Positions 6,082 to 63,512 of a DNA stretch of 64,000 nucleotides are shown piece by piece. The position numbers and the translations under genes were made by a program. The DNA lies in IMG/VR virus record IMGVR_UViG_3300046336_000034, positions 23,009 through 87,008 of that record, one strand, 5' to 3'. The notes under the pieces are model-generated. The model had not been told where the DNA came from and searched no databases. It saw only the letters and a program-made list of their open reading frames with translations. The stretch is from a virus. Numbering within the stretch: the first letter of the stretch is position 1; each line of letters opens with the position of its first letter.

Positions 6082-6112
6082 ATTTTCTCCATTAAAGAAA
6101 CCATTACTAAAT

Positions 6113-6174
6113 AAACAACAAGGCGGTACAGGTAATGACTCTGTATTTTCGGGAGCAACCCCTAGCCTTGTTTC
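6113..6174 (-). ncRNA. Three-stem leader RNA A upstream of endonuclease
   Basis: P1 acaaggc/gccttgt; TAG-ggg-ttgct-ccc-GAAA; P3 tacag/ctgta with loop AGTCATTAC complementary to downstream GTAATGG and TAATGG(AG). Confidence 0.75.
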
Positions 6175-6215
6175 AACTAAACATTATACCACAATTTGTA
6201 ACAGTTGTAACCACT

Positions 6216-6620
6216 CTACGAGACTACTTCTGTAACTACATCAATTAGTACAGGAATAATTGTTCTATTTCCAATTTGAGCGGTAGAACCCACTTTAGGT
6301 GTCGTTAGAATATGAATCCTAAAAGCACCCTCTTCAAAGGTTGTCCCTTTTTTAAACCAGTTACGGGTTAGCTCTGCTCTTGTTAAAGCTGCTGCTGTGC
6401 CATTGTTAGGTGCATCAACTATAAAGACTTGCAACTGCATTTCATCTCTGTGATAGCCTGTGCCGAATACAGGGTCAACTGGGTTCTTCACCATCAGTTG
6501 TACACGTTGATACATCGTTGCAGGAGGGTCAAAGCTGACACCTTCAAAAGCTGTTGGAATTGATGGCGTTAAAGCCATCAGACGGCGTTCTAAGCACCTT
6601 TTTGTTTCTAATATAGCCAA
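6216..6620 (-). CDS. Tail terminator / tail completion protein
   Basis: AFEGVSFDPP, LQVFI, FKKGTTF motifs; position before tail tube. Confidence 0.75.
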   Translation of the reverse strand: MAILETKRCLERRLMALTPSIPTAFEGVSFDPPATMYQRVQLMVKNPVDPVFGTGYHRDEMQLQVFIVDAPNNGTAAALTRAELTRNWFKKGTTFEEGAFRIHILTTPKVGSTAQIGNRTIIPVLIDVVTEVVS

Positions 6621-6625
6621 TGGTA

Positions 6626-7120
6626 CTAACCCTCTTCATAATACTGTTTAAGGTCGCTTAAATAAGCTCCTTGGATGGTTGACTCAGCTTTTCCTCTAAT
6701 GTCGTCAAGGATTTCAAGCTCTTCGTAGGCAGGACCTGTTGCACCTATAGTGAAGGTGTCTCCGATTTTATAGTTAGCCTGAGCTTTATAATCCACGTTG
6801 CCTAACATCGTAGGGACATCATAAATGACTGGATTGAACTCTAAAGTACCTTCGGTATAAGTCCATGCACCTTTATGAAAACCTTCGAGAGCTTCGATAC
6901 CGTAACCGCCCTCTGAGCGAGATTTAGCTCGTTTCTTGTAGTATTCCACGTACTTCGCAGTATTACCACCCTCAGAGATATGTCCCTTACGGGTAGCTTG
7001 ACTAGCTGCTTCAGCTACATCCTGTGCAAACCCCACAACCATGTGTTTGAGCTTTCTTTCAACTTCTGCTTTGTACTCAGCTAAGGATTTTTCCAATTCG
7101 TCTGTATTAGCTGAGAGCAT
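6626..7120 (-). CDS. Putative neck/tail completion protein
   Basis: Synteny; weak HK97 gp10-like character. Confidence 0.5.
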   Translation of the reverse strand: MLSANTDELEKSLAEYKAEVERKLKHMVVGFAQDVAEAASQATRKGHISEGGNTAKYVEYYKKRAKSRSEGGYGIEALEGFHKGAWTYTEGTLEFNPVIYDVPTMLGNVDYKAQANYKIGDTFTIGATGPAYEELEILDDIRGKAESTIQGAYLSDLKQYYEEG

Positions 7121-7123
7121 AGC

Positions 7124-7498
7124 TTAATTCCTTGAGGCAATTACCTTGTAAAGCACCACTTGATTGTGAGCCATGTGTGAGGTGTAAGAGTCCACAACGT
7201 ATACTTCATTGTCCCAAAGAATCTTATCTTTTACAGAAGGAACAAAAGCTAGTGAATCATTAGCAAGATAGAAAGTTCCGGCGTCTTTACCTATTAAATT
7301 AGGGAAGTTATACTGACTGGATTTAATATGCTGTTTGTATGTCCAAACTGTATAAGGTGTCTCAGTATTAGTAACTGAGCCTGTCTCTACGTTGTATACA
7401 CCAGTCTGAACTTTTGTGTACGTGCATTGAGCACCGTTACGTTTGATTGCGTCAATTGAAGCTAGGAGAAAGCGATTAGCCATTATTGTAGACTCCAA
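7124..7498 (-). CDS. Head closure / head-tail joining protein
   Basis: GVYNVETGSV motif, size and synteny; real start probably MANRF. Confidence 0.65.
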   Translation of the reverse strand: MESTIMANRFLLASIDAIKRNGAQCTYTKVQTGVYNVETGSVTNTETPYTVWTYKQHIKSSQYNFPNLIGKDAGTFYLANDSLAFVPSVKDKILWDNEVYVVDSYTSHMAHNQVVLYKVIASRN

Positions 7499-7913
7499 AA
7501 GGGTCTGGATTATTTAAAGATAACTCCGAATTAGGGGTATCAATAAAGTTGTTGTCTACGTTGTCTAAATTCGCTTGAATGTCTGTTTTAGAGATACCAC
7601 CTGCGTACCCGTTTACACTGTTATAGACAGGGTTAAGTTGTGGGTTACGGATGAACATTTCTAGTGATGCTCTGTACTCTGATGCAGCTTTTGAGCCGCC
7701 GGTAACAGAAAATATATCTACAGTTTCATTCGCACTCCACATGGACAATTGCAGAAGGATAACACGAGCCAACTCTAATGATGCACGATTGACATTTTGG
7801 TTATTACGGTCAAGGAAAAATTGAATTTCTTCGTCTGTGGTAAAGTAAAAACCCACGGCTGTATCTTGAGTAAGGAGACGTACTTGCTGGATTAGACTAA
7901 GAGCCATTGGCAC
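7476..7913 (-). CDS. Head-tail adaptor protein
   Basis: VRLLTQD...TDEEIQFFL motif; first structural gene after capsid. Confidence 0.7.
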   Translation of the reverse strand: MPMALSLIQQVRLLTQDTAVGFYFTTDEEIQFFLDRNNQNVNRASLELARVILLQLSMWSANETVDIFSVTGGSKAASEYRASLEMFIRNPQLNPVYNSVNGYAGGISKTDIQANLDNVDNNFIDTPNSELSLNNPDPFGVYNNG

Positions 7914-7922
7914 TTCCTTCTG

Positions 7923-8489
7923 TTAAATTATATCTTGTTTTGAGGATGTCGTAGACTTCGTGTATTCTGCTAAAGCCTGACTATGTTCGAAAGAGAACTC
8001 ACCATAGAACTCTTTGACCCATTCCAATCTAGCAACGATAGCCTCATCTTTTGTATTAAATCGCCTACGAAGAGGGCACTTTACGTCTACACTTATACCC
8101 GCAACCCATTTATTACGTGCTTTGTCAAAATGCACACCTATAGTGCCACTTGTGTTTTTCTCAGAGGCAGTCTTATTCATGTTATTAGACCTACGAGAAC
8201 ACTCACGTAAGTTAGATATCATATTGTTCAGACGATTACCGTCGATGTGGTCGATATCTGCAATTGGAAATCTTCCGTGCACATGTAGCCAAACTAGGCG
8301 ATGGGCGTAATTCAACTCACCTGCAAAGTTAATACGCCAGTAACCACTGCTATGTAAAGTACCTGCAACACTTCCAGCCCTGCATCCTCCACGACATTGT
8401 TTCCAAGTTAAGTCCCCCGTTTCAGGATTATAATCTAAGGCATCTCTTACTTGTTTTTGAGTTAGCTCAGGTGAGTTTATTTTCGACAT
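7923..8489 (-). CDS. HNH homing endonuclease (HNH plus AP2-like)
   Basis: AHRLVW, IDHIDGNRLNNMISNLR, NTSGTIGVHF. Confidence 0.9.
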   Translation of the reverse strand: MSKINSPELTQKQVRDALDYNPETGDLTWKQCRGGCRAGSVAGTLHSSGYWRINFAGELNYAHRLVWLHVHGRFPIADIDHIDGNRLNNMISNLRECSRRSNNMNKTASEKNTSGTIGVHFDKARNKWVAGISVDVKCPLRRRFNTKDEAIVARLEWVKEFYGEFSFEHSQALAEYTKSTTSSKQDII

Positions 8490-8515
8490 TCTACCCTCTT
8501 TGATAATTTATAGGT

Positions 8516-8568
8516 CAAGGCTATCCGTGAAAGAGCACAGAAGAGGCTTACAGACCTCGTTTACCTTG
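8516..8568 (-). ncRNA. Three-stem leader RNA E (variant scaffold) upstream of HNH gene
   Basis: P1 caaggt/gccttg; hairpin gaggt-ctgtaa-gcctc; hairpin tgtg-CTCTTT-cacg whose loop pairs with AAAGAG in the RBS. Confidence 0.55.
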
Positions 8569-8666
8569 TTAATACTTGACTGTAATCAAGCTGTAAGTGA
8601 AACTACATTGTAACATATTTTACTACAAATTGCAATTTCTTTTAATATATCTCGGTAAAATACATT

Positions 8667-8690
8667 AAAAGAAAGCTCCCCTTGGGGAGC
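8667..8690 (-). terminator. Intrinsic terminator after major capsid gene
   Basis: gctcccc/ggggagc stem plus U tract on minus strand. Confidence 0.7.
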
Positions 8691-8708
8691 AATCAAGTTT
8701 ATCTAAGA

Positions 8709-9731
8709 TTAGTTAGAAGAATAACCACGGGCAACCAGATTAGGGCGCTTCATAACGTGGATAAAATTAGACTCACTTTCCAGTGTAATCTCTGTACCAC
8801 GAGGGTCACGGAACTGCCAGAGATATTCAGGCATAGCGATTGTGTTCACCAAGCCGAAGCGATTTGCAGGACCGTAGAAACGTGTGAATGAACCATCATC
8901 TGACTCAGCTACGAAGTAACAATCACCAGAAGGAACTAAGGCACTACCAGCAAGGACTGTGGGGACTTCGACAAAGGTTATGTTTGAAAAGGTGAAACGA
9001 CGATACAACCCCATACCACCAGCACGATTGCGAAGGATGGATTGACCTTCTGTTGCAGAGTAGTAAGTGTAAGCTGCTTGCACTTTAGCATGTGCGATTA
9101 GCTTTGCAAAGAATACTGGAGAGCAATAAGCTGTTACAGAGTTGATAATCACCCCATCAGTCACTGAGTCTTGGAAACCACGGATGATTGCCTCACATTT
9201 AGCAGTAATCTCTGTTGTGGAAGTACCAAAAACGAAGTCAACTTCATTACGAGTGAAACCGAAGTCAGTGTAGAAATTACCAGAGATTGTCGCATTTGGT
9301 GACCACACATTACCAGTAGTAATAGTAGCAAAAGCTGCAACTTCCTTAGTGATTGCAAAAGACTTCTTAATCTTTTCCATTTTACGCATCAACGCTGCTG
9401 CTTCTGTATCAGCTTGTGTCAAGTCACTGTAGGCACTCTTACCAGCAATATCATCAGGATACAAGGCATCCATCAATGGATGGTGTGTCAAAGAGTAGCT
9501 ATGAATCTTGCGAACATCGTTGGATGTAGTCTGTGGTTTTGTACCACGAACTTGGTCCTTAACGATTGCGATAGAACCTTTTGTCTCTTGAAATGTCACA
9601 ACATTCTGTGACAAGAACTCATCCTTAAACAAACCAGAATCGCCGAGCAAAGTCCAAGTTTGTGGGAGGGTATTCAGTTCACGGGTGCTGTCTACAACTT
9701 CAAAGTTATTTGTAAAACTACGAACGGTCAT
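8709..9731 (-). CDS. Major capsid protein (lambda gpE-like family)
   Basis: 340 aa; NFYTDFG, FTRFYGPAN, ESESNF...RP motifs; after decoration protein. Confidence 0.9.
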   Translation of the reverse strand: MTVRSFTNNFEVVDSTRELNTLPQTWTLLGDSGLFKDEFLSQNVVTFQETKGSIAIVKDQVRGTKPQTTSNDVRKIHSYSLTHHPLMDALYPDDIAGKSAYSDLTQADTEAAALMRKMEKIKKSFAITKEVAAFATITTGNVWSPNATISGNFYTDFGFTRNEVDFVFGTSTTEITAKCEAIIRGFQDSVTDGVIINSVTAYCSPVFFAKLIAHAKVQAAYTYYSATEGQSILRNRAGGMGLYRRFTFSNITFVEVPTVLAGSALVPSGDCYFVAESDDGSFTRFYGPANRFGLVNTIAMPEYLWQFRDPRGTEITLESESNFIHVMKRPNLVARGYSSN

Positions 9732-9749
9732 TTTATTCTCTCTTCTTTA

Positions 9750-10145
9750 TTAAATAGTTGTCAGGACTTGAATGCCGACTGCTTCAAGTGAAGCGTAGAC
9801 AACATCTTTCTCAGCGTCCAAGTCATAGGTAGCATCTAGCACCAAACCTGTTTTAGACACAGAGGCAGGCCCACGAGTCAAAGCAACAACTTTAGTATCT
9901 GTAGCCCCCAAGATGGTGATTGGAGTAACCACGATAGCAGCAGCAACTGCTGAACCGTCTACAGCAGTTTGGACTGCACGTTTGTATTTACCTGTAGCAG
10001 TGACTTTACCAAGCACTGTGCCAACTGCCAATGTACCAGCGGTATCATTAACGGTCACACCAGTACGGCAATATGCCAAATCAGCCCAGAGTTCTTGTTT
10101 AATCACGTTACCTTTAACGTGTGTTTCAGTAGCAATAACAGCCAT
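9750..10145 (-). CDS. Head decoration protein (gpD-like)
   Basis: GTVLGKVTATGKY, DGS..AAAI, RGPA motifs. Confidence 0.88.
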   Translation of the reverse strand: MAVIATETHVKGNVIKQELWADLAYCRTGVTVNDTAGTLAVGTVLGKVTATGKYKRAVQTAVDGSAVAAAIVVTPITILGATDTKVVALTRGPASVSKTGLVLDATYDLDAEKDVVYASLEAVGIQVLTTI

Positions 10146-10169
10146 TTTGAATTTTCCTTATTTATTAAA

Positions 10170-11204
10170 TTACTTAGCAGACTTAGCTTTTTCGGCAGCA
10201 GCTTTAACTGCTTTCATCAAAGGTGTTTCTTCTGTTTTTGTTGCTTCTTCAGAACTAAAACCTTGTTCTTTAAACAAGGCAGCATCTTTCTGCACTACCA
10301 TCAAGCCTTCAAGAGCTTTAACAACTTCTTGGAACACTTCTTCTGATTCAACATTAGCAAGACCTTTTACCAAGGCTTCAACTTTTGCATCGTCTTTCAC
10401 TGTAGCCTTCAACAAATCCTTACGGGATTTTTGAATTGCAGCAGCTTTTTCTACTTCAAATTGCTTAACTGTTTCTAAAGCCTTGGTTAGCTGTTCAGAC
10501 TGCTCTTTCAGTGCCTTCTGAATACTATCTAACTCGCTCTTTTGTACCATCTCAACGGTCACGTCCGTTTCGACTACTTTGACTTCTTTTGTCATCTGAG
10601 TTTCCTTATTTTTAACAATTTTGTCGGAAGGCGAAGCCTCGACACTCTCTTTAGACACTTCTTGGTTTTTAACAACCGTGGCTGTGGCTTCGCCGTTTTC
10701 CGCTACAACAGTTTTAGCTGGTGCTTTAGAATCTTTTTCAATCTTCTTGAATAACTTCTCAAGTTGTGCTTGAGACTTCAAGAGGTCAATGTATGTTTCT
10801 GGCTCTAGTTCAGACAAGGATTTGTCAATGTCTTCAGCTTCTGAAAGCTGCTTGATGATTTCAATTGAAGCTACTTTGCTTGCAATATAATCTTCATATG
10901 TTTCAGGTAGCTCTTCTTCTGAACTTTCAAACCCTAAGGCTCTACTAAGCACTTCAGAATCAAATCCACCTAAATTAAAGAAGACTTGTAGGAACTCACT
11001 AAACTCTAAACTTACTTTTACCTGTGATGCTTTTGCAACGTGCTCATCTGTAAACTTAGAAGCTTTTAGTACAAGTGCATAGGGAGAGCCGTTAGCAGGT
11101 TGCTGACCTTGCCAATCCTCTGTCCCTACTAAGCTGATATGTGCGTCCTTACCGCTAAAGTCTATATTCTTAAGGGTTCTTTTTGGTTTGATTTTTGTTG
11201 TCAT
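10170..11204 (-). CDS. Capsid scaffold protein
   Basis: Charged coiled-coil C-terminus; between protease and decoration genes. Confidence 0.65.
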   Translation of the reverse strand: MTTKIKPKRTLKNIDFSGKDAHISLVGTEDWQGQQPANGSPYALVLKASKFTDEHVAKASQVKVSLEFSEFLQVFFNLGGFDSEVLSRALGFESSEEELPETYEDYIASKVASIEIIKQLSEAEDIDKSLSELEPETYIDLLKSQAQLEKLFKKIEKDSKAPAKTVVAENGEATATVVKNQEVSKESVEASPSDKIVKNKETQMTKEVKVVETDVTVEMVQKSELDSIQKALKEQSEQLTKALETVKQFEVEKAAAIQKSRKDLLKATVKDDAKVEALVKGLANVESEEVFQEVVKALEGLMVVQKDAALFKEQGFSSEEATKTEETPLMKAVKAAAEKAKSAK

Positions 11205-11211
11205 AATTTAG

Positions 11212-11955
11212 TCATTCGATTGCTTCCACAATAGCCATTGCACCAATACTGATACCATTGATTCGTCCATCGACAATTTGTTCCCAAAGGTCTTCGTCAT
11301 GAATTTGTAGTGTCATAAGCCAAGTCCCCTTCTGAATAAAATGCTCATTCAAAACGAGGTCAGTAGGTGCTAGGTAACTCTCAATGACACTGAAGGTTGT
11401 AGTAGGAACACTGTGAAATAAGTAGCAGTTCTGGAGTGATTTATTAAAGGACTCTTTGGCTTTACGAACTTCTTCTTCAGATGTATAGTCACCTGTGAGG
11501 TCAGTTCCTACATTCATACTCACGTATGTGACTTGCATCAAAGCTTTGTCTACTGCTTTAACAACACCTAATGTACCAACAGAATCCTCGCCTTTTTGCT
11601 CCATTTGAGCCTTGGTGATTTCCGTCCTATCAGATACTAAAATACCTTCAGCTTTGAGAATGGACTTACTCCATGCAAGTCCAGATTTGCCACCTAAAGC
11701 ATAATATGTCATTACATTGTCGTCACAACCTCCATCCCACAGTTTCTTATTAAAATCTAAGCCCTTTTCGAGTTTAGTTAAAGTGTGGTACATATTAGAG
11801 ATTGTTTTAATATCGAACTTAACTGATTTAGCTAATTCGACTTGTTGTAATCTTTGTTTAGCTACATAAGACTCTCTAGGGTAACGTTCTGATATTGCAA
11901 TACCCCTAGAAATATTATCCAAAACAGCCGTTGTAGGCTGGTAGTATTTAATCAT
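11212..11955 (-). CDS. Prohead protease, XkdF-like
   Basis: C-terminal DLTGD...H, ESYLAP, KGTWL, INGISIGA. Confidence 0.75.
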   Translation of the reverse strand: MIKYYQPTTAVLDNISRGIAISERYPRESYVAKQRLQQVELAKSVKFDIKTISNMYHTLTKLEKGLDFNKKLWDGGCDDNVMTYYALGGKSGLAWSKSILKAEGILVSDRTEITKAQMEQKGEDSVGTLGVVKAVDKALMQVTYVSMNVGTDLTGDYTSEEEVRKAKESFNKSLQNCYLFHSVPTTTFSVIESYLAPTDLVLNEHFIQKGTWLMTLQIHDEDLWEQIVDGRINGISIGAMAIVEAIE

Positions 11956-11981
11956 TGTTATTATTCCTAACCTATACTATT

Positions 11982-12010
11982 ATTATACCATAAAATCATA
12001 CAAAAAGCAA
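11982..12010 (-). promoter_or_regulatory. Sigma70-type promoter for the capsid operon
   Basis: Minus strand TTGCTT-17 nt-TATAAT with TG extension. Confidence 0.55.
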
Positions 12011-12036
12011 GTGAAATATTAGTTTCTTATAATTAT

Positions 12037-14709: not shown

Positions 14710-14717
14710 AGTTAAAA

Positions 14718-15254: not shown

Positions 15255-15257
15255 GAT

Positions 15258-17512: not shown

Positions 17513-17550
17513 TTATAAGCCCCGTAATACACACTATTTAAAAATATAAA

Positions 17551-19227: not shown

Positions 19228-19230
19228 GGT

Positions 19231-19428
19231 TTATTTAATTTCTATAGTGTCGATGATGTAGGAACTGGATGCAAAGCGTAGACCTTCTGGTAGCTGAATT
19301 ACTTTATCGTAGTAAATCATTGTTCCATCGCTAAGTTGAACAGGGTTACTATCTGATTCAAGAACACTCCCTACGTATTTACCGTCTGTAGTGTCCGTGA
19401 TACAGAGTTTTAATTTTTTAACTTTCAC
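19231..19428 (-). CDS. Hypothetical protein
   Basis: ORF track; tightly coupled to neighbours. Confidence 0.55.
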   Translation of the reverse strand: MKVKKLKLCITDTTDGKYVGSVLESDSNPVQLSDGTMIYYDKVIQLPEGLRFASSSYIIDTIEIK

Positions 19429-22022
19429 ACATAATTCCTGTCTATAACTTGAGCAATTGGAAGAGTTGAATCACTGATACTAAGCAAGTAATCGTACACT
19501 TGGTACGGGACATATCCAGCCTTGATAACCTTTATATCCACATATGTGCTAGGTGCATACGTGTAAACAAATCCGTAGTTGTCTGCGGCATTTTGGTCTA
19601 CATTCGCAAGCGCTGTATTAGTGTCACTTGTTTTAACAACAATGTCTGAACCTGCTACTAATCCTGTCAGGGTGAGTGTGTTTACTGAAAACGGATACAA
19701 ACTTGTCTGTTGTGCTGTACTCGTTGTTGTCATAGGTATAGCTAATCTAGTAAGAATATTACCAGCATTAACTATCAGGGTTGTAGCACGTATTTTAAGT
19801 TTAAAACCTGTTGTGCTATTGATGACCTGTGAGCTTAAATTAACTGCATTCAACGCTAACCATGCACCATATCCAGAGCCTGTATCAATAGCAAACTCGA
19901 TTGTATGGTTTCCCCAAGTGCTACCACTTGTCCATGTGACGTTAGTACCTGTAGCTGTAGTCAACGCATTAGTAAATGCTGTGTAGCCAATAGCAAAAAA
20001 TGGCATCTCCCATGTCACTTGGTCACCTGCTTTTGTCAATAAGACAGAGCCGCTTGAGTTAAATTGAGGCAAACCGCCCGTGATGAAACACTGCGCAGCG
20101 GTTGACGATGTGGGTTCATTACCCAGTAGGTCAACAAATCCAGCGGTTGTACTTATAAACCGAGTCCCCCAATGCGTACCATAAACTGATACCTGCCCAC
20201 TGGTTGCTGCTGTCAATCCACAACTTTTATATACAGTATTTAGTGAAGCAATTACAGACGTATCCGCATAGTCACCCATACAGTTCTCAATGAGTACATT
20301 GGTATCAGAGTTTACGAAGCTGTATGGCCCTGTACGAGTGTTACTCAGGTACATGCGCTTGATGGTGATACCATCGTTGTTACCTGCACCGTTTACACCG
20401 ATACCTGTGACTGTTGCAGTCATCACTAAGGGAGTAACACTATCTGTACCTATGCTTTTAATCAAAGTCTCATAACAAGCATTAAGTGTAACTATACCGT
20501 TGTATGGGCCGTTGTTTGGAAGGGGTAGCAAGAATCCACTAACTGTAGTCTTGTTGCACCCTGTTGCGAAATCTAACGCATATTGCGGATTTGTACTTGT
20601 TGTAGTCGTTGTAATTGTGTGGTCATAGTACGTAAGATTATTGATTGCACAATTTTGAGCACCAACAAAGAAACCTCTACCTCCGACAAATATTTCGTTT
20701 GTAAACGTGCAGTTCACCGCCTGAGTCGAACTGATACTACCAGTTGTGGCATTAGCTCTCAATGTCAATGACAAATGAGTGTTACCTGAAAAGGTTACGT
20801 TTGTTGCATAGTTTATAGTGCTGACATAGCTACCAGATGCGGCTAATGAGAACCTATTGAATGCATTATTTTGAACTAATCCACCAGCAAAGCATGAACT
20901 CACAGCAAGTGCTGCTTGGGCACTTTGCGCTTGGGTGGGTGCAACAATACAGTCCGACACATCTAATGGTGAGGCTATTTCTGACAGAATCATTGAATCA
21001 GATATAGCACAAGATTTATATTTTACATAAAAAGCTTGTAAAAAGTTAACATACCACTGAATAACACATCCACGTAAATCAAAATAACCTGCACCAGTGG
21101 TGACGAACTCTTGTCTTGTAGCAATAGTCGCATTAGGTAATACCCGTGTACCTGAGCCTGATGCAGAGCGAGTAACATTTGTTAGGATAATAGCGGGGAT
21201 ACGAACTTTACAACCTGTGGGTGGTAAAAAGTAAACGCCATTAGTTCCATCATTCCCAATAACAATACCTGCTGTTGTTTGCTTAAACAGTTTTACGCTT
21301 CCATCTGTACGTGTAGTAGATAAAGCGACTTGTGAGCCTGCACTTGAGAATCGATCATAGACACCAGAACCTGCCGATGTCTCAATCCACACACCAGTGA
21401 ACACACCTGCATTAGTTGCTGTTGTTGGGCATTGAATCACTTGACCACGCACGCCTGTGGTAGTTCCAATTTGAAACCATGCTTCAACCGTCTCTACAGC
21501 CCCAATACGGGGTACTGTAATCGTTGCCGCATCTGCCCCACGTACCTCTATCCACCCTTGTACATCAGCCCCTGTACAAGTAGCTGTAATACCAGTCAAA
21601 AGACCTGCGGTAAAGTCCCCACCTGCTTTGTTACCAATCTTTATAAAACCTGTTGCCCCAATAGCTGCACCTGCGACAATTGGTTCTGTCTGCCATGTTG
21701 TCCAAGCGCCTAGAAAGACACCAGTAACACCTCCTTGGGAGATGGCAGCACCGTAAGCAGGGGAGTTACCTGCCCCACCTGTATAGGCAATAACTCTTAC
21801 ATAGGTTGGGTCAATCCTCAGAGTACCACCTGTTCCCGTGAACGAGACTGTATCTAATGACCCACCAGCTACGCTATGGTTAGAGCAGGCGTATGTGTCA
21901 GTACGTATTACCAGTGTTGTATCATTGCTTATAACATGTGTATCAAGGGTTGCGTTAACAGACGGGGAAGTTAGTGCGTCAAAGTTAACGATTGCACCTG
22001 TGTTATGTGTATAAGCCGTCAT
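19425..22022 (-). CDS. Large Thr/Gly/Asn-rich putative structural protein with beta-helix-like middle
   Basis: 865 aa; C-terminal TLTGLVAGSDIVV...AQVIDRNY. Confidence 0.55.
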   Translation of the reverse strand: MTAYTHNTGAIVNFDALTSPSVNATLDTHVISNDTTLVIRTDTYACSNHSVAGGSLDTVSFTGTGGTLRIDPTYVRVIAYTGGAGNSPAYGAAISQGGVTGVFLGAWTTWQTEPIVAGAAIGATGFIKIGNKAGGDFTAGLLTGITATCTGADVQGWIEVRGADAATITVPRIGAVETVEAWFQIGTTTGVRGQVIQCPTTATNAGVFTGVWIETSAGSGVYDRFSSAGSQVALSTTRTDGSVKLFKQTTAGIVIGNDGTNGVYFLPPTGCKVRIPAIILTNVTRSASGSGTRVLPNATIATRQEFVTTGAGYFDLRGCVIQWYVNFLQAFYVKYKSCAISDSMILSEIASPLDVSDCIVAPTQAQSAQAALAVSSCFAGGLVQNNAFNRFSLAASGSYVSTINYATNVTFSGNTHLSLTLRANATTGSISSTQAVNCTFTNEIFVGGRGFFVGAQNCAINNLTYYDHTITTTTTSTNPQYALDFATGCNKTTVSGFLLPLPNNGPYNGIVTLNACYETLIKSIGTDSVTPLVMTATVTGIGVNGAGNNDGITIKRMYLSNTRTGPYSFVNSDTNVLIENCMGDYADTSVIASLNTVYKSCGLTAATSGQVSVYGTHWGTRFISTTAGFVDLLGNEPTSSTAAQCFITGGLPQFNSSGSVLLTKAGDQVTWEMPFFAIGYTAFTNALTTATGTNVTWTSGSTWGNHTIEFAIDTGSGYGAWLALNAVNLSSQVINSTTGFKLKIRATTLIVNAGNILTRLAIPMTTTSTAQQTSLYPFSVNTLTLTGLVAGSDIVVKTSDTNTALANVDQNAADNYGFVYTYAPSTYVDIKVIKAGYVPYQVYDYLLSISDSTLPIAQVIDRNYV

Positions 22023-22023
22023 T

Positions 22024-22673
22024 TTATAATATCTCTGTCAAAACTGAGGTTAAAATCCCCGTTGTGTAATTAAGCGTCTTACGCACTGTTTGGTCTACTT
22101 GGAAATGGTCAACATACTGAAGAACACCACCTGCCCAATACAAGAGTTTATATGTACCGTCTGCGTAGTCCACTCTTTGCAAATCTTCACCTGAATAAGT
22201 CAGTTCATCTAGACCCTCAGTCTCTGTACTCACTGTTCCAGTACCTGTGGCGGTTTGAACCACGACAACGGAATGTTCAACGGCTGTGATAGGTGCAACA
22301 TTGGAAACGATAGTTTTACCATCTGCAAGTTTAAGAATTAAACGCCCTTTATCGTCGAATTGAGCGCCTACAACATCGTTCCCTTGGGGTAGGTTAGCCT
22401 TGGCTATTTGAGGCTCTTGTAGAGCTTCCTGATAAGCCTGTGGGTTATTTCTGATGTCCAGGATTGCTTGAAGGTGTCTTGGAACAGCAGGTTTAACAAA
22501 TTTCTTAATTGTTTTCTGCTCTGCCTGCTTTACAAGGGCTAAGCCTTTGAAGATTGCCTCATCAGTTGACCTACCGTTTGCTAGGGCTTCATTGGCTGCG
22601 TCTGCAAAGAGTAATCTTATTTCTCTACTCTTCCCTTGTAGTGTGGGGTGTGTTGATAGGGCTGTGTATTGCA
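22024..22673 (-). CDS. Hypothetical head-region protein with ChaB-like N-terminus
   Basis: Likely start MQYTAL; LFADAANEAL...DEAIFKG resembles ChaB-type helical domain. Confidence 0.5.
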
Positions 22674-23245
22674 TCTTGTTTTCCGTGTCTCTCTGAGTAC
22701 CTAGCACCTGCTGCATTGAGTTCTTGTTGTTTTAGTAATTTAAAATTCATTGCTAAGTCAAAAGCTCCGTCTACACCGTATTTCGAAATTGAAAAACTCC
22801 TGCCACACTGTTTTCCAGAGGGGAGTTTCCAATTTACTTCCCATGACTCATAGACACGCCCTTTTATAATCTTTTTACGCAAGCACATCCCTGTGAAACC
22901 AGAAGTGTTTGTTGACCGCTTCTTCTGGTTTCTTGAGTTAACCGCATGAGACACTTCTCTCAGATTGAGAAAACGATTGTCAGAGCGATTACCATTCTTG
23001 TGGTCAATTTCCTCCGTAGGGAAAACACCAAACGCGTATAACCAAGCTAAACGGTGAGCTTTATACGGAATGTTATCTATCTTAATTACTGTGTAACCAT
23101 GTTGGATAGTGCCAGCGGGTTGTCCCACTTTGACACTGTTTGCGTGAGGATAAGGTTTCTTAATCCAGACAAACACCCCAGTCTCTTTGCTATAATCTAG
23201 CACCTCTTTTAACCGTTCTCTGGTTAATTCTCTATTAAATTTCAT
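22625..23245 (-). CDS. HNH homing endonuclease
   Basis: AHRLAWLY, IDHKNGNRSDNRFLNLR, NTSGFTG. Confidence 0.9.
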   Translation of the reverse strand: MKFNRELTRERLKEVLDYSKETGVFVWIKKPYPHANSVKVGQPAGTIQHGYTVIKIDNIPYKAHRLAWLYAFGVFPTEEIDHKNGNRSDNRFLNLREVSHAVNSRNQKKRSTNTSGFTGMCLRKKIIKGRVYESWEVNWKLPSGKQCGRSFSISKYGVDGAFDLAMNFKLLKQQELNAAGARYSERHGKQDAIHSPINTPHTTREE

Positions 23246-23278
23246 TCTGATTCCTTCGTAAAAGGCGTAATAATAAAA

Positions 23279-23331
23279 GCAAAAGGAAGTAGTTTACGAA
23301 GCTACTTGTCGGCTGCCGCCTATCCTTTGTT
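23279..23331 (-). ncRNA. Three-stem leader RNA D upstream of HNH gene
   Basis: P1 aaagga/tccttt; TA-ggc-ggca-gcc-GACA; P3 agtag/ctact with loop CTTCGTAAA exactly complementary to TTTACGAAG at the RBS. Confidence 0.75.
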
Positions 23332-23378
23332 ATAACTTAATAATATATTATATCACAAATACTCTAGTATTTCAAATA

Positions 23379-24848
23379 CTATGCCGCATTATCTGTATTT
23401 ACACTGGAAGTATCTGTTCCAGATAATGTATTAGCTGTTCCCTCTCCTGCTGTTTTCATTCCATCTCCTGAACGGGAAGTCTTTTCTGGGAGAATTACAT
23501 CTAAATCTGTACCTTCTGGTAGGGAGTCTAAACCTAATTTACCTAGGATGTCATTAATAACGTCAAGACTTCTAGGTAAGAATCCAACAGCACCTACTCG
23601 TTGTACAAATTTGGAATATGATTCCATGTCTGTATCTTCAAAGCCCTCATAATCAAAGGTACACTGGCGAGATATATCCCATCCGTTTAATTCATACAGA
23701 TGCTTAATAAGGTCGTTATTAAACACCTGCACAATACTTTTCAAGTACGCTTCTACTTGAGTGCCTGTCAGTGAGTTCTTAATTGATGCTAAAGCAAAAC
23801 TACCTGTCGATGTGTTACCTAAAAGTAAGAGGTCAGCAGCTAGTCCAATGAATATCATCTCTCGGTAGTAAGATTTTATTTTCGTTGTATCAAAGGACTT
23901 CTGACCTACCGTGGACATAAGTTCCAAGTCAAACAGCTTCTGCTTAGTATCTGGGTCTACATCACTAGGAAGCATCACACCTGCTTGAGAGTTCTGCTGA
24001 AGATTCCTGAGGATGTTCTGGAAGTTCAAGAGTGCTGCTTTTTGTTCAGGGGATGCCTCAGAGGACATGTACTGAGCAGGTAAGGTTAATAAAGGTACAC
24101 CCTGTAAATCCTTAGCTACTCCAGATGCCTCAAGTTCTTCAATCGCTTGTAAATACTTCCAAGGAAGGTATACGTTCCTCAAAGGAGAAGTACCGTAAGG
24201 GTTGGTTTTATTCTGTCCTACAGTGAACAGTAAGAACTTCTCACGAGGGAGAACAACAACACCTGTTGGGTGCTTTGTATAACGTCCAAAAGGGTCGTTA
24301 ACGTATGCTAGGTTTTGCTTCATACCTATTACATCGTTACCCTCGTCATCAAACACAAAATTAGTGATACTTTGTTGATGACGTAACGCTAACTTTTTAA
24401 TCCCAACCAAACCATCGTTGTACATAGAACCTTCTTCTTTGGTTCTACGGCGAAGGACCTTCTCTAGTGGTGCAAAACCATAATCTAAGGAAGTTAAACT
24501 GGAAGCAATGACATCCTCTAGCGGGATTTCCATATCACCGAGCATTTGCTCGATAATTAGTGCTTGCTTCTTCTCTTTAGCTGTGGGGTTTTTACAAGGG
24601 AGAACTCTAAAAGTTGCTTTAGTCAACATGGACTTATAAAGACCTATTGCTGCATTACATGCTGGATGTAGAAGCATTTGTTTGTAGGTCTTTAAGTTCG
24701 TTGGAAAGTTCAGTTCAGATTTGATTTCCTCAGCAGGAATACCACCAAACATTCTCATACCTGATACACCCATTTCACCTAGAGTAAAGGCTTCTGGTTT
24801 ATCTAATCCACTGTACGATTTTTCTACTTTTGATTTTCTTGTTGTCAT
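23379..24848 (-). CDS. Portal protein
   Basis: 489 aa after TerL; YGFAPLEKV, NPYGTSPLR, TGSFAL motifs. Confidence 0.88.
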   Translation of the reverse strand: MTTRKSKVEKSYSGLDKPEAFTLGEMGVSGMRMFGGIPAEEIKSELNFPTNLKTYKQMLLHPACNAAIGLYKSMLTKATFRVLPCKNPTAKEKKQALIIEQMLGDMEIPLEDVIASSLTSLDYGFAPLEKVLRRRTKEEGSMYNDGLVGIKKLALRHQQSITNFVFDDEGNDVIGMKQNLAYVNDPFGRYTKHPTGVVVLPREKFLLFTVGQNKTNPYGTSPLRNVYLPWKYLQAIEELEASGVAKDLQGVPLLTLPAQYMSSEASPEQKAALLNFQNILRNLQQNSQAGVMLPSDVDPDTKQKLFDLELMSTVGQKSFDTTKIKSYYREMIFIGLAADLLLLGNTSTGSFALASIKNSLTGTQVEAYLKSIVQVFNNDLIKHLYELNGWDISRQCTFDYEGFEDTDMESYSKFVQRVGAVGFLPRSLDVINDILGKLGLDSLPEGTDLDVILPEKTSRSGDGMKTAGEGTANTLSGTDTSSVNTDNAA

Positions 24849-24877
24849 ATATTGGATTAGCTCCTTGGAGATTTACT

Positions 24878-26577
24878 TTAAGTGAACTCGCCTTGTTGAA
24901 GGGGTGCTGCACCTGTGGGGAGTTGGGTTGTTTGGAAGCCGAAAGAGGTTGCTTGGGTTAGGTCTGGGAGGGAGAAGGATGGTAAAGGTGCTTGCTTATT
25001 TAGTAAAACAAAACAATCTGAACTTGCATCTGCTTGGTCGTCCTTATAATTATTAGTACCGTCGAAGGTTTCGAGTTCCCTGTGGTAATCCGCATTCCAC
25101 TCACCTTTGACAATGCTAACAAAACCACCTTCTGCTACAGCAGCAAACGGAGCAAACCGCTGTACCTTAGCTCTTGTAGGCTTAACTAATCTACAAATAA
25201 AACCAGCTTCTAATAGACGCTTTTGTAATCCCTTGACATAAGCTCCACCACCTGCGGGGTCAAGAGGTAATCCGACAACTACGTCTGTGCCATCTGCTCT
25301 TGCTGTATTGAGAATAAGTTCTTCAACAACATGTGCTCGGTCACGAATCCTAACGACATCTTCAACTGTATAAAGTGACTTAACATCTTTAGACATCAAA
25401 ACACCTGCTGTATAATCAGGATTTTTCGAGGAGCTTTCATTTGGTTTTGTGAAACTCAAATCCCAAGCCCTGACACGTTTAAGCACCTTTGCGGGAGGGT
25501 ATAGAACTTCTATTACCCAGTGTTGTTTCCAGTAACCTGATGCACTCTCACGAGCGTACCAAGAACCGTAAAGTAGGCGTTCTTTTTCTACTAGGGGGAG
25601 GGCTTTTAGTTTAGAAATATAGCTTGGGTCAGCCTTCATCAACACAGGATTTGAGTAGATATTCCCCGGAATAAATTTGAAACTAAGTATCCCCGACTCA
25701 CCACCTGTGCCATAGATTTTCTCAAGTTCTTCTCTTGAATCTGCCCATTCCATACCGCCACCAGATACCTGCACAAAATACCTGTTAGGATACTCATCCC
25801 GTATTATTGGAATACCTCGTTCGTCAAGTGCGTACTCAACCCACTCACGCATAAAGGAATCGTAATCGGGATTACCTGTCGCAAAGATTTGTTTCTTAAA
25901 ATCTACGGAGGTTGACCTGAGCCTAGAGAAAAGATAAACCACATTCTCCCTAGAGAGCTGTTGAATTTCATCGAAGCCGAGAAAATTAAGTTCTGCCCCC
26001 TGCCAGTTATATTTATCTGATGGGTTATCTAAGTAAGCAAACTTCAATGTTGCACCTGAACTGAAGATAATTTCTAAGTCTCGATTTCTTACTTTTAAAG
26101 CTGGGTCAACCTTCTTATATAATTGAATTGCAGCATCAAATAAGCCACCACTGTTACTAAGTTGCTTTGTTGTTTTACGAAATATCACACCACGAGTACG
26201 AGGATGGTGACAGAACTTCAGGAATGAGCCAAGCAAGCAAAATGATTTACCTGCTCCCGCTGCCATATTTGTTATGTGATTCGTTAATTCACTCCCATAT
26301 TTCTACGGGTATCGGACTATATCTTTAATCTTTCGATTACCTACTGTTTCGACTGCACTTGCAGCCTACAAGCTTTCGCTTTAGTCTCTACACACGCCCA
26401 GAGATTACTCTCTTGCTTGGCTCGGTATTGCCCTCGGCTTTACGTTAGGGTTTCACCGAATTAAATAGGTTTTGCTCGGAGGCGCAATTCACCACCGTAG
26501 TAAGTTATATCAGCATCACTCAAAAGGTACTGCTCTTGAGCTTTGGACGCTGGTGCAAACACTAATTCTTCATTCAT
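24878..26577 (-). CDS. terL: Terminase large subunit (exon 1 26491-26577, exon 2 24878-26263)
   Basis: Splicing restores Walker A YYGG|AAGAGKS; Walker B FLGFDE; TGNP; RAWDL, DYTAG and DDQAD nuclease motifs. Confidence 0.93.
26264..26490 (-). mobile_element. Group I intron (227 nt, no ORF) in terL
   Basis: 5' exon ends in U, intron ends in G; core AATTCGGTGAAACCC, GGGCAATACCGAGC, GTAGAGACTA, AAGATATAGTCC; P1 GCCUCCG pairs with exon CGGUGGU with a U.G at the splice site. Confidence 0.92.
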
Positions 26578-27691
26578 CCGTTTCCTTTATTCTTATGTAG
26601 ACATCTCGCATTTTATTTAATAAAACTGATTCAAGCTCCACAGGATAACATTCGGTGTAACCTGTTCTACGCATGTACTGTTTCATTTTTTCAACGGGAA
26701 GTTTATACTCTATGAAATCTGAGTGTATGTCCAGTTCAAGTTTTGTCGCAACTCTTCCATTAACAACAGGAAACGAGTAAAGCAGGTCTGAAGAACTTCC
26801 ACCTAGTAAGCCATATTCTCTAATGCGGTTTTTTGGGTTTTTACCATAGCCGAGTTTTAAGAAAGTAAAATCAAATACCTTGATTTTAAATAGGTAGATA
26901 TTACTTGCATTATTCAAATATGAATCGTTGCATTCGTGACAAATAAAATTATTACGAGTCACGCAAACTTTGTCTATATCCCTGATGTGCCCACAGTCTA
27001 CAAATCTATAACTTTTAAATCTCGATGGAAGCTCAAGGCTTGAGGCATCTCCTAGTAACTCTAATCCACGTTGCCTTACTAGCGCAAGATATGCAACTTC
27101 TTCGCAGTCACTGCACTTAGGTACACCATGTTTAAGTCGGTGCTCTAACATATAGAAAGTATGCCCGCACTCTAAATGTCTGTACCTATTATAACTGTTG
27201 GGGCGATTAAGATGCCTAGCTGCCTCTGGTGCTTTCTCTACTAACTCTATACCATATTTTGACGTTGCCAGTGTGAGCTTTGATTGCGTACACTCATCAC
27301 ACACATAAGGAATGAGCGGAGGTTTTTGTAAATTACTGTAGAAAATATCTACCTCATGCCCACACTCTAGTACTTTGTACTTTCGTTTCAGAACACACCC
27401 ATCAGAGGAAGCCCCAAGACATAACAGACCTCTTAAAGACTCTGCTTCCTCTGCACGAGAGTCTGAGCACATCTTGCAAGTAAGTACTCCTTTACTATTA
27501 CAAATATTACTGATTTGTCTAACCGTGGAATGACCACAGGTATTAAAAATATAGTTTCCGTACCACCTAGGTTTCTTTAAAAACATACTTAATAAAGTAA
27601 GTCCACGTTTAGATGCGTATCCTTGATTTAATTTAAATCGTTGAACTTCCTTATTAGTGTTGTCATTGATTAAGTCTGTAAACATTCCCAT
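26570..27691 (-). CDS. Zinc-ribbon repeat protein with C-terminal GIY-YIG/T5orf172-like nuclease domain
   Basis: Four CGH...CxxC repeats; IYLF...LKLGY...RI...LE..IH...TECY. Confidence 0.75.
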   Translation of the reverse strand: MGMFTDLINDNTNKEVQRFKLNQGYASKRGLTLLSMFLKKPRWYGNYIFNTCGHSTVRQISNICNSKGVLTCKMCSDSRAEEAESLRGLLCLGASSDGCVLKRKYKVLECGHEVDIFYSNLQKPPLIPYVCDECTQSKLTLATSKYGIELVEKAPEAARHLNRPNSYNRYRHLECGHTFYMLEHRLKHGVPKCSDCEEVAYLALVRQRGLELLGDASSLELPSRFKSYRFVDCGHIRDIDKVCVTRNNFICHECNDSYLNNASNIYLFKIKVFDFTFLKLGYGKNPKNRIREYGLLGGSSSDLLYSFPVVNGRVATKLELDIHSDFIEYKLPVEKMKQYMRRTGYTECYPVELESVLLNKMRDVYIRIKETDE

Positions 27692-27721
27692 ATTATCTCC
27701 TCAGATAATCCTCTAAAATAA

Positions 27722-27776
27722 AACAAACAGCGGGAGAATGAGGAGTTCTCTTTCGGGAATGACCCTAGCTGTTGTT
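27722..27776 (-). ncRNA. Three-stem leader RNA B upstream of endonuclease
   Basis: P1 aacagc/gctgtt; TA-ggg-tcatt-ccc-GAAA; P3 gagaa/ttctc with loop CTCCTCA exactly complementary to SD TGAGGAG. Confidence 0.78.
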
Positions 27777-27787
27777 AAAACTATTAC

Positions 27788-28177
27788 TTACTCTTCGACC
27801 TTGTCAATTTCTTTACCACCAGAAATCATTGTCAACGAAAATACAGGTGCTTTAGTAGTAGGTTGAATTTCCTGACCTTCTTGTTCATCGTACTCAGTTG
27901 AATAAACATCTTTAATCAACTCCCGATAAATCTGAAGTACCAGAGCTGCACTCTTCAACTTATTCTGGTCTGAAGAATCTTCGCTTTCTATAATTTCCAT
28001 CACAGTTTTAACACTTGATGAAAGATGAGGCTTCAACTTACGGATTAAGCTAATAAATTCTCTATTTCTGACCTCTCGGTTTGTTAGAGGCTCGGCTTTA
28101 CGTCCGTCAATCCTGCCTGACATGTTAATATTAGGGTCGGTATCACCACCCAGTAACTCGCGTCTCTTAAAAACCAT
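27788..28177 (-). CDS. terS: Probable terminase small subunit
   Basis: DPNINMSGR N-terminal motif, size, position upstream of TerL. Confidence 0.6.
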   Translation of the reverse strand: MVFKRRELLGGDTDPNINMSGRIDGRKAEPLTNREVRNREFISLIRKLKPHLSSSVKTVMEIIESEDSSDQNKLKSAALVLQIYRELIKDVYSTEYDEQEGQEIQPTTKAPVFSLTMISGGKEIDKVEE

Positions 28178-28359
28178 ACTATACTATCCTTTTACACCTG
28201 AAAGTATACAATAATATACCACAAACAGCAAAAGCCTCCCTATAGGAAGCTAGTTAAAATTAATGACAATCTTTATTTAAACAGGCGTTGTCTTCCTGTT
28301 GACGCTTCGTACTTTTCAATACTCTCCGTGGTCAAAACGTGCCCTAAGGTAGTGGGACT

Positions 28360-28435
28360 TGGTGCTCCGTGGAGGATTTGAACCCACGACCTCACCCTTA
28401 CAAGGGGCGCGCTCTTCCAACTGAGCTAACAGAGC
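28360..28435 (-). tRNA. tRNA-Thr(UGU)
   Basis: Cloverleaf GCTCTGT/ACGGAGC, anticodon loop CTTGTAA, TTCAAAT loop, encoded CCA; one T-stem mismatch. Confidence 0.9.
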
Positions 28436-28444
28436 TAATTCTTT

Positions 28445-28981
28445 TTAGACTTTACAATCGGTTGTACCATTCAGTACGCCGTAGATATGCGGTAACCAAC
28501 CCTTGCGAACTTCACCGTTGGTGAACTTACCATCAACTACTTGCCCCTTGATGCCTACCTTAGCACCGCCAACATCTACAGCCATGCCAAGTGAACCATC
28601 GAGATTCATACCACCTTCAACAGGGTAATCAGTAAGAAATAAATTTAATTTAGATTGTTCTTTAACAATCTGACCATTCGCATCAAACACGAACTTAAAA
28701 CCGTTTCCCAGTAAAGTCATTTCACCTCCTTGATTTCGCACATCAGTAGGATAGTCTCCTGTAATCGTAATACCCTTAGATGCCGCCTCAATCACTAGGG
28801 CTTTAACCCTATCTTCCATAGGTGAAGCATCTACAGAGCCTGTAATCTGGCAAGAGAACTTAGTCACTGCTGCAGGAGCAGTCTCAACAACTCCACTGGT
28901 GCAAGCTGTAGTAGCTAATATTAAGACAAGGGTAAAAATAATAAAGGAAACCTTCAACCAATGGTGATTCCAAAAATTCAT
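28445..28981 (-). CDS. Putative lipoprotein
   Basis: From MNFW: hydrophobic stretch FIIFTLVLILA then lipobox-like TTA-C. Confidence 0.6.
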   Translation of the reverse strand: MNFWNHHWLKVSFIIFTLVLILATTACTSGVVETAPAAVTKFSCQITGSVDASPMEDRVKALVIEAASKGITITGDYPTDVRNQGGEMTLLGNGFKFVFDANGQIVKEQSKLNLFLTDYPVEGGMNLDGSLGMAVDVGGAKVGIKGQVVDGKFTNGEVRKGWLPHIYGVLNGTTDCKV

Positions 28982-29009
28982 ATCTGGCTTAATCCATTTA
29001 TTAACCCCG

Positions 29010-29585
29010 TTAAGCGAGTAGTTTATTTTCAACATTCTTGTCCTTTTCTATTATAACTGGGTAAAATACGCCACTATACTCTAGCGCCTTACTTTCATAT
29101 ACACTGCTTGCTTCCTGTGGTGTTGCAAAGCTTCCAAGATGGATTTTTTCACCTGTCAAGCTACGTATTTGAGCAACATATCTGCACGATTTTATATCCC
29201 AACTTACACCCTTAAGACCACTTGTATTGCTTCTAGGCTTACTTGTATTTCTTTTGTTTTCTCGGTGCGAGCAGACCCTGAGATTACTAATACAATTATT
29301 AATAGGATTCCTATCAATATGGTCAATTAGGTTTTGTTCTCCGAAAGGAAATTTCCCATGAACATATAACCAAGCTAATCGGTGTTCCAAGTAGGCTTGA
29401 CCATCAATCTTAATTACCCTATAGCCATTAGGTCTTAAATAACCTGCCCTGTTACCTACTACAATCTTGCTATAAATGGAACTTTTCTCAATCCAAGTAA
29501 AGACTCCAGTATTGGAATCATATTTTAATAATTCTTTTAACCTGTCTAAAGTTAACTTTACTTCTTTTCTCTCGTTGGTTTTCAT
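29010..29585 (-). CDS. HNH homing endonuclease (HNH plus AP2-like)
   Basis: EHRLAWLY, IDHIDRNPINNCISNLR, NTSGLKGVSW, HLGSF. Confidence 0.9.
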   Translation of the reverse strand: MKTNERKEVKLTLDRLKELLKYDSNTGVFTWIEKSSIYSKIVVGNRAGYLRPNGYRVIKIDGQAYLEHRLAWLYVHGKFPFGEQNLIDHIDRNPINNCISNLRVCSHRENKRNTSKPRSNTSGLKGVSWDIKSCRYVAQIRSLTGEKIHLGSFATPQEASSVYESKALEYSGVFYPVIIEKDKNVENKLLA

Positions 29586-29621
29586 TTTGTTTCCTTAGTT
29601 AATAGGATAGTTACTAATAAA

Positions 29622-29675
29622 ACAATCAGCAGGAAGGTAACTAATCTTCTTTTCGAGAATGACTCTAGCTGTTGT
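29622..29675 (-). ncRNA. Three-stem leader RNA C upstream of HNH gene
   Basis: P1 cagc/gctg extended; TA-gag-tcatt-ctc-GAAA (compensatory to ggg/ccc in B); P3 gaag/cttc with loop ATTAGTTAC complementary to GTAACTA and TAACTAA(GG). Confidence 0.78.
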
Positions 29676-29679
29676 AAAT

Positions 29680-63447: not shown

Positions 63448-63512
63448 TTTATTCCTTGAAATTAGAAAATCCCACCCAAAGGTAATACCCCTAGGTGAGA
63501 TTATATCACAGA

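Follow-up and report, generated by a model that had tools for sequence, protein, structure and literature searches.

The DNA analysed here (the window, 64,000 nucleotides (nt)) comprises bases 23009-87008 of the 87,008-bp IMG/VR virus record IMGVR_UViG_3300046336_000034, the 87 kb genome of an uncultured, virulent-looking freshwater phage. On the minus strand of the window four endonuclease open reading frames (ORFs; 5257-6081, 22625-23245, 26570-27691 and 29010-29585) are each preceded by a structured leader. These leaders, referred to as copies 1-4, lie between the tail terminator and tail tube genes, after the portal gene, before terL and in the tRNA region, respectively. A fifth copy is present in the part of the genome outside the window. 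Positions are those of the window unless marked as genome positions. Protein searches identified Curvibacter phage P26059A and Limnohabitans phage DC31 as the nearest phages; megablast of window 22000-30500 against GenBank phages gave no match, and relatives were reached via proteins only.

Leader architecture and matching of the P3 loop to two sites

All copies are built in the same order. From 5′ to 3′ they consist of a closing stem P1 of 6-8 bp, UA, a hairpin P2 of 3-4 bp, the junction GAAA(A) or GACAA, a hairpin P3 of 4-5 bp with a 7-9 nt loop, one or two pyrimidines and the returning strand P1′. This scaffold is followed by a U-rich linker, site A, site B on or beside the Shine-Dalgarno sequence (SD), and the start codon. 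Sites A and B are stretches complementary to the P3 loop of their own leader. Site A starts 12-20 nt 3′ of P3 and, where the two sites are separately resolved, most copies have 3-11 nt between the end of site B and the ATG. The P2 stem is ggg/ccc in copies 1 and 3, ggc/gcc in copy 2 and gag/ctc in copy 4. The P2 loops of copies 1-4 have no downstream complements; the P3 loop alone has them.

A covariance model (R1) was built from 12 leader copies and then run on 32 related phage records, in 13 of which it found a total of 25 unique leader copies (the clade copies). All fifteen modelled pairs vary on both sides among these 25 copies. The covariation score was 0.55, compared with 0.19 for shuffled data (0/500) and at most 0.22 with slid partners, in an alignment that was fitted to the model, which favours the score. 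The leader fold is backed by this covariation and not by stability. R1 is tuned to AT-rich copies and gave 35 matches in 100 pattern-derived loci tested; a descriptor script was used for loci L166-L280. When the 3′-terminal 33 nt of the phage leaders are folded by minimum free energy, most give a further small AU-rich hairpin, P4, over the SD region. By a permissive criterion P4 brackets site B in 18/25 phage leaders, a count in which the site taken as B is in several cases really site A.

The 25 clade copies carry 16 distinct P3 loops. At site A the mean longest Watson-Crick run of these loops is 5.6 with their own leader and 3.3 with other leaders; the corresponding values at site B are 5.75 and 3.7. 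Not one of 100,000 permutations reached the observed sum, at site A or at site B. Own-leader runs at site A are 5-7 in copies 1-4. A gene-agnostic viral sample was assembled by two word scans of IMG/VR, using words from P2 and the junctions only, which yielded 83 unique descriptor hits. Its 45 distinct loops gave mean runs of 5.4 in own and 2.9 in other leaders at site A, and of 5.0 and 3.4 at site B, again with 0/100,000 permutations for each site. Across the sets, the triplet of loop, site A and ribosome-binding site (RBS) is found with at least 60 different loops.

The same variation can be followed at a single locus. Curvibacter phage P26059A, a cultured relative with two leader copies, has an ortholog of the copy 1 GIY-YIG gene in the same place, between tail terminator and tail tube. 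Its leader has the same scaffold and another loop, UUCCUAGA, which matches sites UCUAGG and CUAGGAA. A first-pass annotation of this DNA had described the four minus-strand scaffolds with closing stem P1, UA, a hairpin of 3 bp, GAAA/GACA, P3 and a U-rich tract. It had also described the differing P3 loops, each with two complementary sites before its own ATG of which the second overlaps the SD, and had proposed a portable scaffold whose loop is re-written to the RBS region of its own gene. These descriptions are borne out, the second site overlapping or abutting the SD, and the permutation tests with 16 and 45 loops place the matching beyond chance.

The features of the five copies are listed in Table 1. 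The TG-extended -10 promoter-like sites of copies 1 and 2 end 10-16 nt upstream of P1. Such a site is weak before copy 3, and none was found before copy 4. The promoter-like sites are located upstream of the whole leader and never inside it.

Table 1. Positions of the leader elements, their complementary sites and the genes that follow them (window coordinates, except for copy 5)
Feature	Position	Strand	Remarks
Copy 1 promoter-like site GTTACA-17-TGgTATAAT	6183-6211	minus	~10 nt short of P1; sigma-70 consensus match only, 10/12, TG extension
Copy 1 scaffold P1-UA-P2-GAAAA-P3-CC-P1′	6117-6172	minus	RF02996 45.2 bits over 6101-6172; R1 60.9 bits
Copy 1 P3 loop AGUCAUUAC	6132-6140	minus	
Copy 1 site A GUAAUGG	6101-6107	minus	
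Copy 1 site B UAAUGG	6089-6094	minus	on SD GGAG; within small hairpin P4 (6084-6100)
Copy 1 gene, GIY-YIG/NUMOD3	5257-6081	minus	ATG 6079-6081
Copy 2 promoter-like site TTGAAA-17-TGtGATATAAT	23347-23375	minus	11/12 sigma-70 match, best in region
Copy 2 scaffold, junction GACAA + AUAG	23280-23331	minus	R1 57.7 bits; no Rfam match
Copy 2 P3 loop CUUCGUAAA	23293-23301	minus	
Copy 2 site A UUACG	23266-23270	minus	
Copy 2 site B UUUACGAAG	23254-23262	minus	on SD AAGGA; 9/9 complementary
Copy 2 gene, HNH_3	22625-23245	minus	ATG 23243-23245
Copy 3 scaffold	27724-27776	minus	starts ~12 nt past stop of upstream 129-amino-acid (aa) ORF; R1 59.2 bits
Copy 3 P3 loop CUCCUCA	27739-27745	minus	
Copy 3 site A GAGGA	27709-27713	minus	
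Copy 3 site B UGAGGAG	27697-27703	minus	7/7; in loop of 6-bp hairpin AUUAUC/GAUAAU
Copy 3 gene, endonuclease-like	26570-27691	minus	ATG 27689-27691
Copy 4 scaffold	29622-29676	minus	R1 61.4 bits
Copy 4 P3 loop AUUAGUUAC	29637-29645	minus	
Copy 4 site A GUAACUA	29608-29614	minus	
Copy 4 site B UAACUAA	29595-29601	minus	adjoins SD AAGGA; in loop of hairpin UCCU/AGGA
Copy 4 gene, HNH_3	29010-29585	minus	ATG 29583-29585
Copy 5, outside window, before HNH-AP2 gene	genome 13962-14026		perfect TTGACA-17-TATAAT promoter upstream

Nuclease cassettes and their surroundings

The product of the copy 1 gene matched NUMOD3 and the PHROG class 'homing endonuclease', and the products of copies 2, 4 and 5 matched HNH_3. 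For the copy 3 product the match was to PHROG 681 'endonuclease' only (E 1e-7), with none in Pfam, and its earlier description as a Zn-ribbon/GIY-YIG protein is therefore not upheld. For 23 clade leaders a downstream ORF could be called, and every one of these ORFs has HNH, NUMOD, GIY-YIG or zinc-ribbon marks. Pfam HNH_3 accounts for 11 of the 23 downstream genes and NUMOD, GIY-YIG or zinc-ribbon for the others; the L075 ortholog of the copy 1 gene was counted as a nuclease by homology alone. Nucleases also dominate among the 66 genes of the wider viral sample (PHROG endonuclease VII 13, HNH 8, homing endonuclease 7). Based on this gene-agnostic census, the leader is to be regarded as a module of cassettes in general, and its restriction to nucleases as a feature of this genome. 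When the copy 1 GIY-YIG protein was used as a query in viral contigs, 36 distant loci were found, none with the leader; the copy 4 HNH protein led to one locus.

Comparison with related strains shows, as far as sequence can, that the leader is the 5′ end of a mobile nuclease cassette. Copy 3 and its gene are absent from the relative G001, in which only 22 nt of spacer separate the 129-aa ORF from terL. After the portal gene, G001 and the source phage carry different, non-alignable pairs of leader and HNH gene, each pair with its own loop and sites. The 5′ edge of copy 4 (29675-29680) is a breakpoint in metagenome contigs from related strains. A single contig lacks 28910-29674, one joins the portal end (23380) to 29679 through a 39-nt promoter-like piece, and some change to other leader variants within the scaffold, at 29621 and 29655. 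These contig breakpoints are weak evidence because they come from single DNA contigs compared at at least 85% likeness. Taken as part of a cassette, the scaffold does accompany three kinds of nuclease gene, as the first-pass annotation had it.

The terL gene is split by an ORF-less group I intron (RF00028, 65.5 bits; 26266-26577, minus strand). Its exon 1 extends from the ATG at 26575-26577 to near 26492 (...ITYYGG), and exon 2 starts near 26265 (AAGAGKS, Walker A). The endonuclease gene of copy 3 is a free-standing gene whose stop overlaps with the start of terL. The possibility that this gene is intron-encoded was rejected because the terL intron contains no ORF and is located 3′ of the gene. 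A nuclease located beside an ORF-less intron may represent an arrangement as in 'collaborative homing'. Neither the terL intron nor the copy 3 nuclease is present in G001.

Several further observations were made in these regions. The Walker A codons of G001 terL (L103 1780-1830; G001 81780-81830) can be read through only if the frame is shifted by one base in a run of T, which is probably an assembly error at the terminal overlap of the contig. In the record of the source phage the same sequence occurs near genome ~900 and ~86950, and this suggests that the genome ends in a terminal repeat, or that it is circularly permuted and its assembly overlaps itself. A marginal match to the Rfam abiF RNA (29736-29772, minus strand; 40.7 bits, threshold 37) is found between tRNA-Asn and copy 4 and is followed by a terminator-like hairpin. 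Several metagenome contigs skip ~104-112 nt here (29729-29843), so that the abiF-like piece is present or absent among strains.

Two other nuclease genes of the window have structured upstream regions. Upstream of the HNH_3 gene at 7926-8489 (minus strand) are a separate promoter-like site and a leader that forms a three-way junction of another type (8490-8612; P1 CAAGGU/GCCUUG); CUCUUU, the loop of one of its hairpins, is a perfect complement of AAAGAG at the SD. This leader had no Rfam match and was not found by R1; it may be a second, related leader type. At 63447-63500 (minus strand; genome ~86455-86510) an HNH-like gene that its start region marks as paralogous to the copy 5 gene shows a TGtGATATAAT promoter-like site together with an apparent truncated scaffold, CACC-UA-GGGG...CCUU...GGUG, without P3.

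Relationship to the int-alpA RNA family

An Rfam scan of the whole window with default filters and gathering thresholds missed every copy. In Rfam scans with permissive filters copy 1 matched int-alpA (RF02996) with 45.2 bits, above the gathering threshold of 35.8, and copies 3, 4 and 5 scored under it (33.2, 25.6 and 26.2 bits); for copy 2 there was no Rfam match at E up to 10. The junction architecture of int-alpA, P1(8 bp)-UA-P2-GAAAA-P3(5 bp, 7-9 nt loop)-CY-P1′, is found in all five copies. The RF02996 consensus contains the loop 'aaCCuUua' and a complementary 3′ tail, 'uaAgGG'. The phage leaders have such a tail complementary to the P3 loop, namely site A, which is therefore already part of the catalogued motif. 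The name-giving setting of int-alpA, an integrase-linked island of Proteobacteria between int and alpA, is not that of the phage copies. Overall, the leaders are divergent variants of int-alpA, a class of RNAs with a three-way junction, and, since the fold is that of a known Rfam family, they do not constitute a new class.

A word taken from the Rfam consensus retrieved 61 bacterial loci, mostly from Burkholderiales and other Betaproteobacteria; Burkholderiales are also the likely host group of the source phage. All ten bacterial loci tested on RF02996 scored 52-75 bits. Pairing was assessed in an alignment of 56 of the 61 loci. Between the loop and site A 95.5% of cells are paired, with double-sided changes in three of six pairs, and between the loop and site B 90% of cells are paired. 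Site B sits in the loop of P4, and the middle pair of P4 covaries (AU 20, GC 20, GU 7). The bacterial int-alpA leaders are thus of the same design, and P4 and site B extend past the 3′ end of the RF02996 model. The ORFs behind these leaders begin 36-43 nt 3′ of P3. They encode hypervariable orphans of ~190-480 aa (L104-L164; mean column identity 8%), which gave almost no Pfam matches and are not nucleases. Transfer RNA genes are nearby in 4 of 10 bacterial loci. The slot behind bacterial int-alpA looks like a hypervariable cargo slot of integrative elements.

We take int-alpA to be one of the candidate motifs of Weinberg et al. 2017 (NAR 45:10811; PMC5737381), the main text of which does not name it. 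Within the portions of the literature covered by a paper search there was no functional study of int-alpA, and the mentions concerned outer membrane vesicle small RNAs and the Enterobacter mobilome. The first-pass annotation had allowed that a direct Rfam match with this function already described would remove novelty. Such a match exists, but no published function was found for it by that search; what is lost is therefore the novelty of the fold and not that of the proposed use. The re-coded triplet of loop, decoy and RBS, the addition of site B and P4 to the family structure, and the front-end role in homing-endonuclease cassettes appear unpublished.

Proposed mode of action and comparison with known systems

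We lean towards the interpretation of the leader as a cis-acting switch, in which the P3 loop would pair either with a decoy or with the RBS and so limit translation of the nuclease. The leader would form the 5′ untranslated part of a mobile homing-endonuclease cassette. Its scaffold of P1, P2 and P3, with the conserved junctions UA, GAAA/GACA and CY, would present the P3 loop, which would have two alternative partners within its own transcript. The decoy would be site A, a few bases 3′ of P1′; site B would be the ribosome-binding region, usually in or around the P4 loop just before the start codon. Pairing of the loop with site B would hide the SD and reduce translation, and pairing with site A would leave the SD free. 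The balance between the two may set a low output of a potentially harmful nuclease, whatever the landing site or promoter.

The pairings are confined to loop nucleotides and covary at both sites, which indicates that the loop really contacts both. Because one loop cannot hold both sites at once, the pairings must alternate in one transcript, or several RNAs must act on one. The fixed spacing, the continuity of the motif into site A, the absence of a family-wide terminator tract and the repetition of loops within genomes elsewhere point to action in cis. From these patterns we infer that pairing represses translation, that it does so in cis and that sites A and B compete. CsrA-type GGA sites were considered for the bacterial members and rejected as a general explanation, because many of the phage sites have no GGA and covary with the loop.

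A number of observations weigh against the cis switch. Copy 5 is poorly matched to its own sites (runs of 3 and 4). Single-sequence folding energies are no better than those of shuffles (z -0.3 to -0.5, and +0.6 for copy 5), and P4 is weak in the phage leaders (mean -3.4 kcal/mol, mean z -0.95). The genome has at least five other Pfam HNH_3 genes that are not preceded by the leader; the original wording 'each endonuclease' is thus too broad. The wider viral sample includes non-nuclease genes behind the leader (tail assembly chaperone-like 8, Lar-like 6, methyltransferase and others). Crude duplex energies, calculated with imperfect windows that mis-split short leaders, make site B the stronger in 20/25 phage copies and site A the stronger in 41/61 bacterial copies. 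Furthermore, the full re-writing of a loop together with two sites is hard to explain by drift without interaction between copies, and this leaves room for action in trans. A specific ordering of the switch, with site A as the kinetic and site B as the thermodynamic partner, was rejected since the two sets, phage and bacterial, do not agree in their order and the windows mis-split short leaders.

Action in trans could take the form of a riboregulator of the c4/CI kind. The scaffold would be freed by processing or by weak termination 3′ of P1′ and would build up as a stable small RNA, with its loop binding sites A and B on other transcripts from its cassette; this would give negative feedback, and different loops would keep the cassettes independent. 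The layout resembles that of P1 c4 and P4 CI, with the regulator directly upstream of duplicated targets, and Rfam assigns int-alpA the type 'Gene; sRNA'. A U-rich tract 3′ of P1′ is present in 15/25 copies of the AT-rich clade but in only 7/61 bacterial int-alpA copies and 19/67 copies of the wider viral set. The terminator-like tract is not a conserved family feature, and a simple terminator scan detected none at the base of P1, which is A-U rich; the short terminated antisense RNA initially offered as an option is weakened by these counts. The strong diversity of loops (16 and 45 distinct ones in the two sets) would suit avoidance of cross-talk, as would the finding that all loops differ within each multi-copy genome of the clade. 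However, such distinctness within one genome is not beyond chance (P ~0.4 by our estimate), one viral contig (L264) holds two copies with an identical loop, and in bacterial genomes the loops of several copies are almost identical (L138/L145 and others). The distances of the sites from the scaffold are, moreover, fixed. Regulation in trans is in our opinion unlikely.

Two other explanations attribute a different role to the conserved scaffold. The junction could bind a host or phage protein or a small ligand and thereby choose between sites A and B according to cell state or infection time. The junction letters (C)UAG, CGAAA(A)G and CYG are indeed kept from GC-rich bacteria to AT-rich phages while the helices and the loop vary freely, and two alternative pairings that are near-equivalent by crude energies are the usual make-up of an expression platform. 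On the other hand, the downstream genes share no common metabolic theme, there is no candidate ligand or partner, and the conserved junctions may serve the fold alone; a switch of this kind is distinctly unlikely. We consider it very improbable that the element acts mainly at the level of transcript or DNA, either as a 5′ structured cap stabilising or insulating the mRNA or as a shared sequence for recombination and exchange of cassettes. Such a role would agree with the promoter-like sites that put the transcription start 4-10 nt before P1 in copies 1, 2 and 5, with the contigs that break inside the scaffold and continue as other leader variants, and with the different cassettes held by the same intergenic site. 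It leaves unexplained why the loop covaries with two downstream sites, one of them on the SD, and the compensatory RNA-level changes in P1-P3 favour a folded RNA.

Expression of homing endonucleases must suffice for their spread and yet spare the phage. To our knowledge, control of free-standing homing endonucleases outside T4 is largely undescribed. A self-contained control module on the cassette would, if the cis switch is correct, explain how the cassettes can insert among the essential late genes for tail, portal and terminase, under promoters not their own, without doing harm. For int-alpA, an orphan Rfam family, it would mean a concrete proposed function and a longer structure that includes site B and P4. 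A scaffold that tolerates dozens of loop/target codes is also of interest for the design of orthogonal translational regulators. A broader proposal, which we put forward as speculation and do not expect to hold, is that the int-alpA scaffold is a natural, freely re-addressable riboregulator and that released or neighbouring leaders may also act in trans, so that several cassettes in one phage would form independent RNA circuits, each throttling one selfish nuclease or another accessory gene. Independent circuits of this kind would provide a ready-made family of orthogonal regulators and suggest a general rule that mobile cassettes bring their own dosage control.

Among known systems, int-alpA shares with the phage leaders the three-way junction and its junction letters, the 3′ tail corresponding to site A and, in its bacterial members, sites A and B with P4. 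The phage leaders differ in their setting, as they occur in the structural-gene region of a phage before homing-endonuclease genes, whereas the bacterial int-alpA leaders precede orphan genes. Their helices are AT-rich, and their loops are fully re-written and often not anti-SD, in contrast to the bacterial loops, nearly all of which are ACACCUUCA. Four of the five copies are under the Rfam threshold.

In P1/P7 c4 and P4 CI, a small folded RNA lies upstream of its targets in the same transcription unit, and its loops pair with duplicated sites, one of which is at the RBS. The leaders resemble this C4 clan in that a folded RNA is placed directly upstream and a loop pairs with duplicated sites, including the RBS. 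Membership in a c4-like class, suggested at first, found no support: the C4 (RF01695), c4-2, c4-a1b1 and isrK covariance models matched none of the four window copies or their surroundings at E up to 10, and there is one targeting loop here compared with two (a′ and b′) in c4. Both targets are downstream in the phage leaders. The c4 RNA is a ~77-nt RNA released by RNase P. The genes proposed to be controlled by the leaders encode nucleases rather than the antirepressor or immunity circuit of c4 and CI.

Translation of the T-even homing endonucleases I-TevI, I-TevII, I-TevIII, segB and mobE is limited by RNA structure over the RBS or SD (PMC2988022). A small local hairpin around the SD, P4, is also seen in most of the phage leaders, but it is weak. 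The T4 element is a simple local hairpin that is bypassed by a late promoter within the hairpin, whereas the promoters here are upstream of the element. In the phage leaders a separate scaffold supplies the anti-RBS loop from ~45 nt upstream, and a second site, the putative decoy, is present in addition to that at the RBS.

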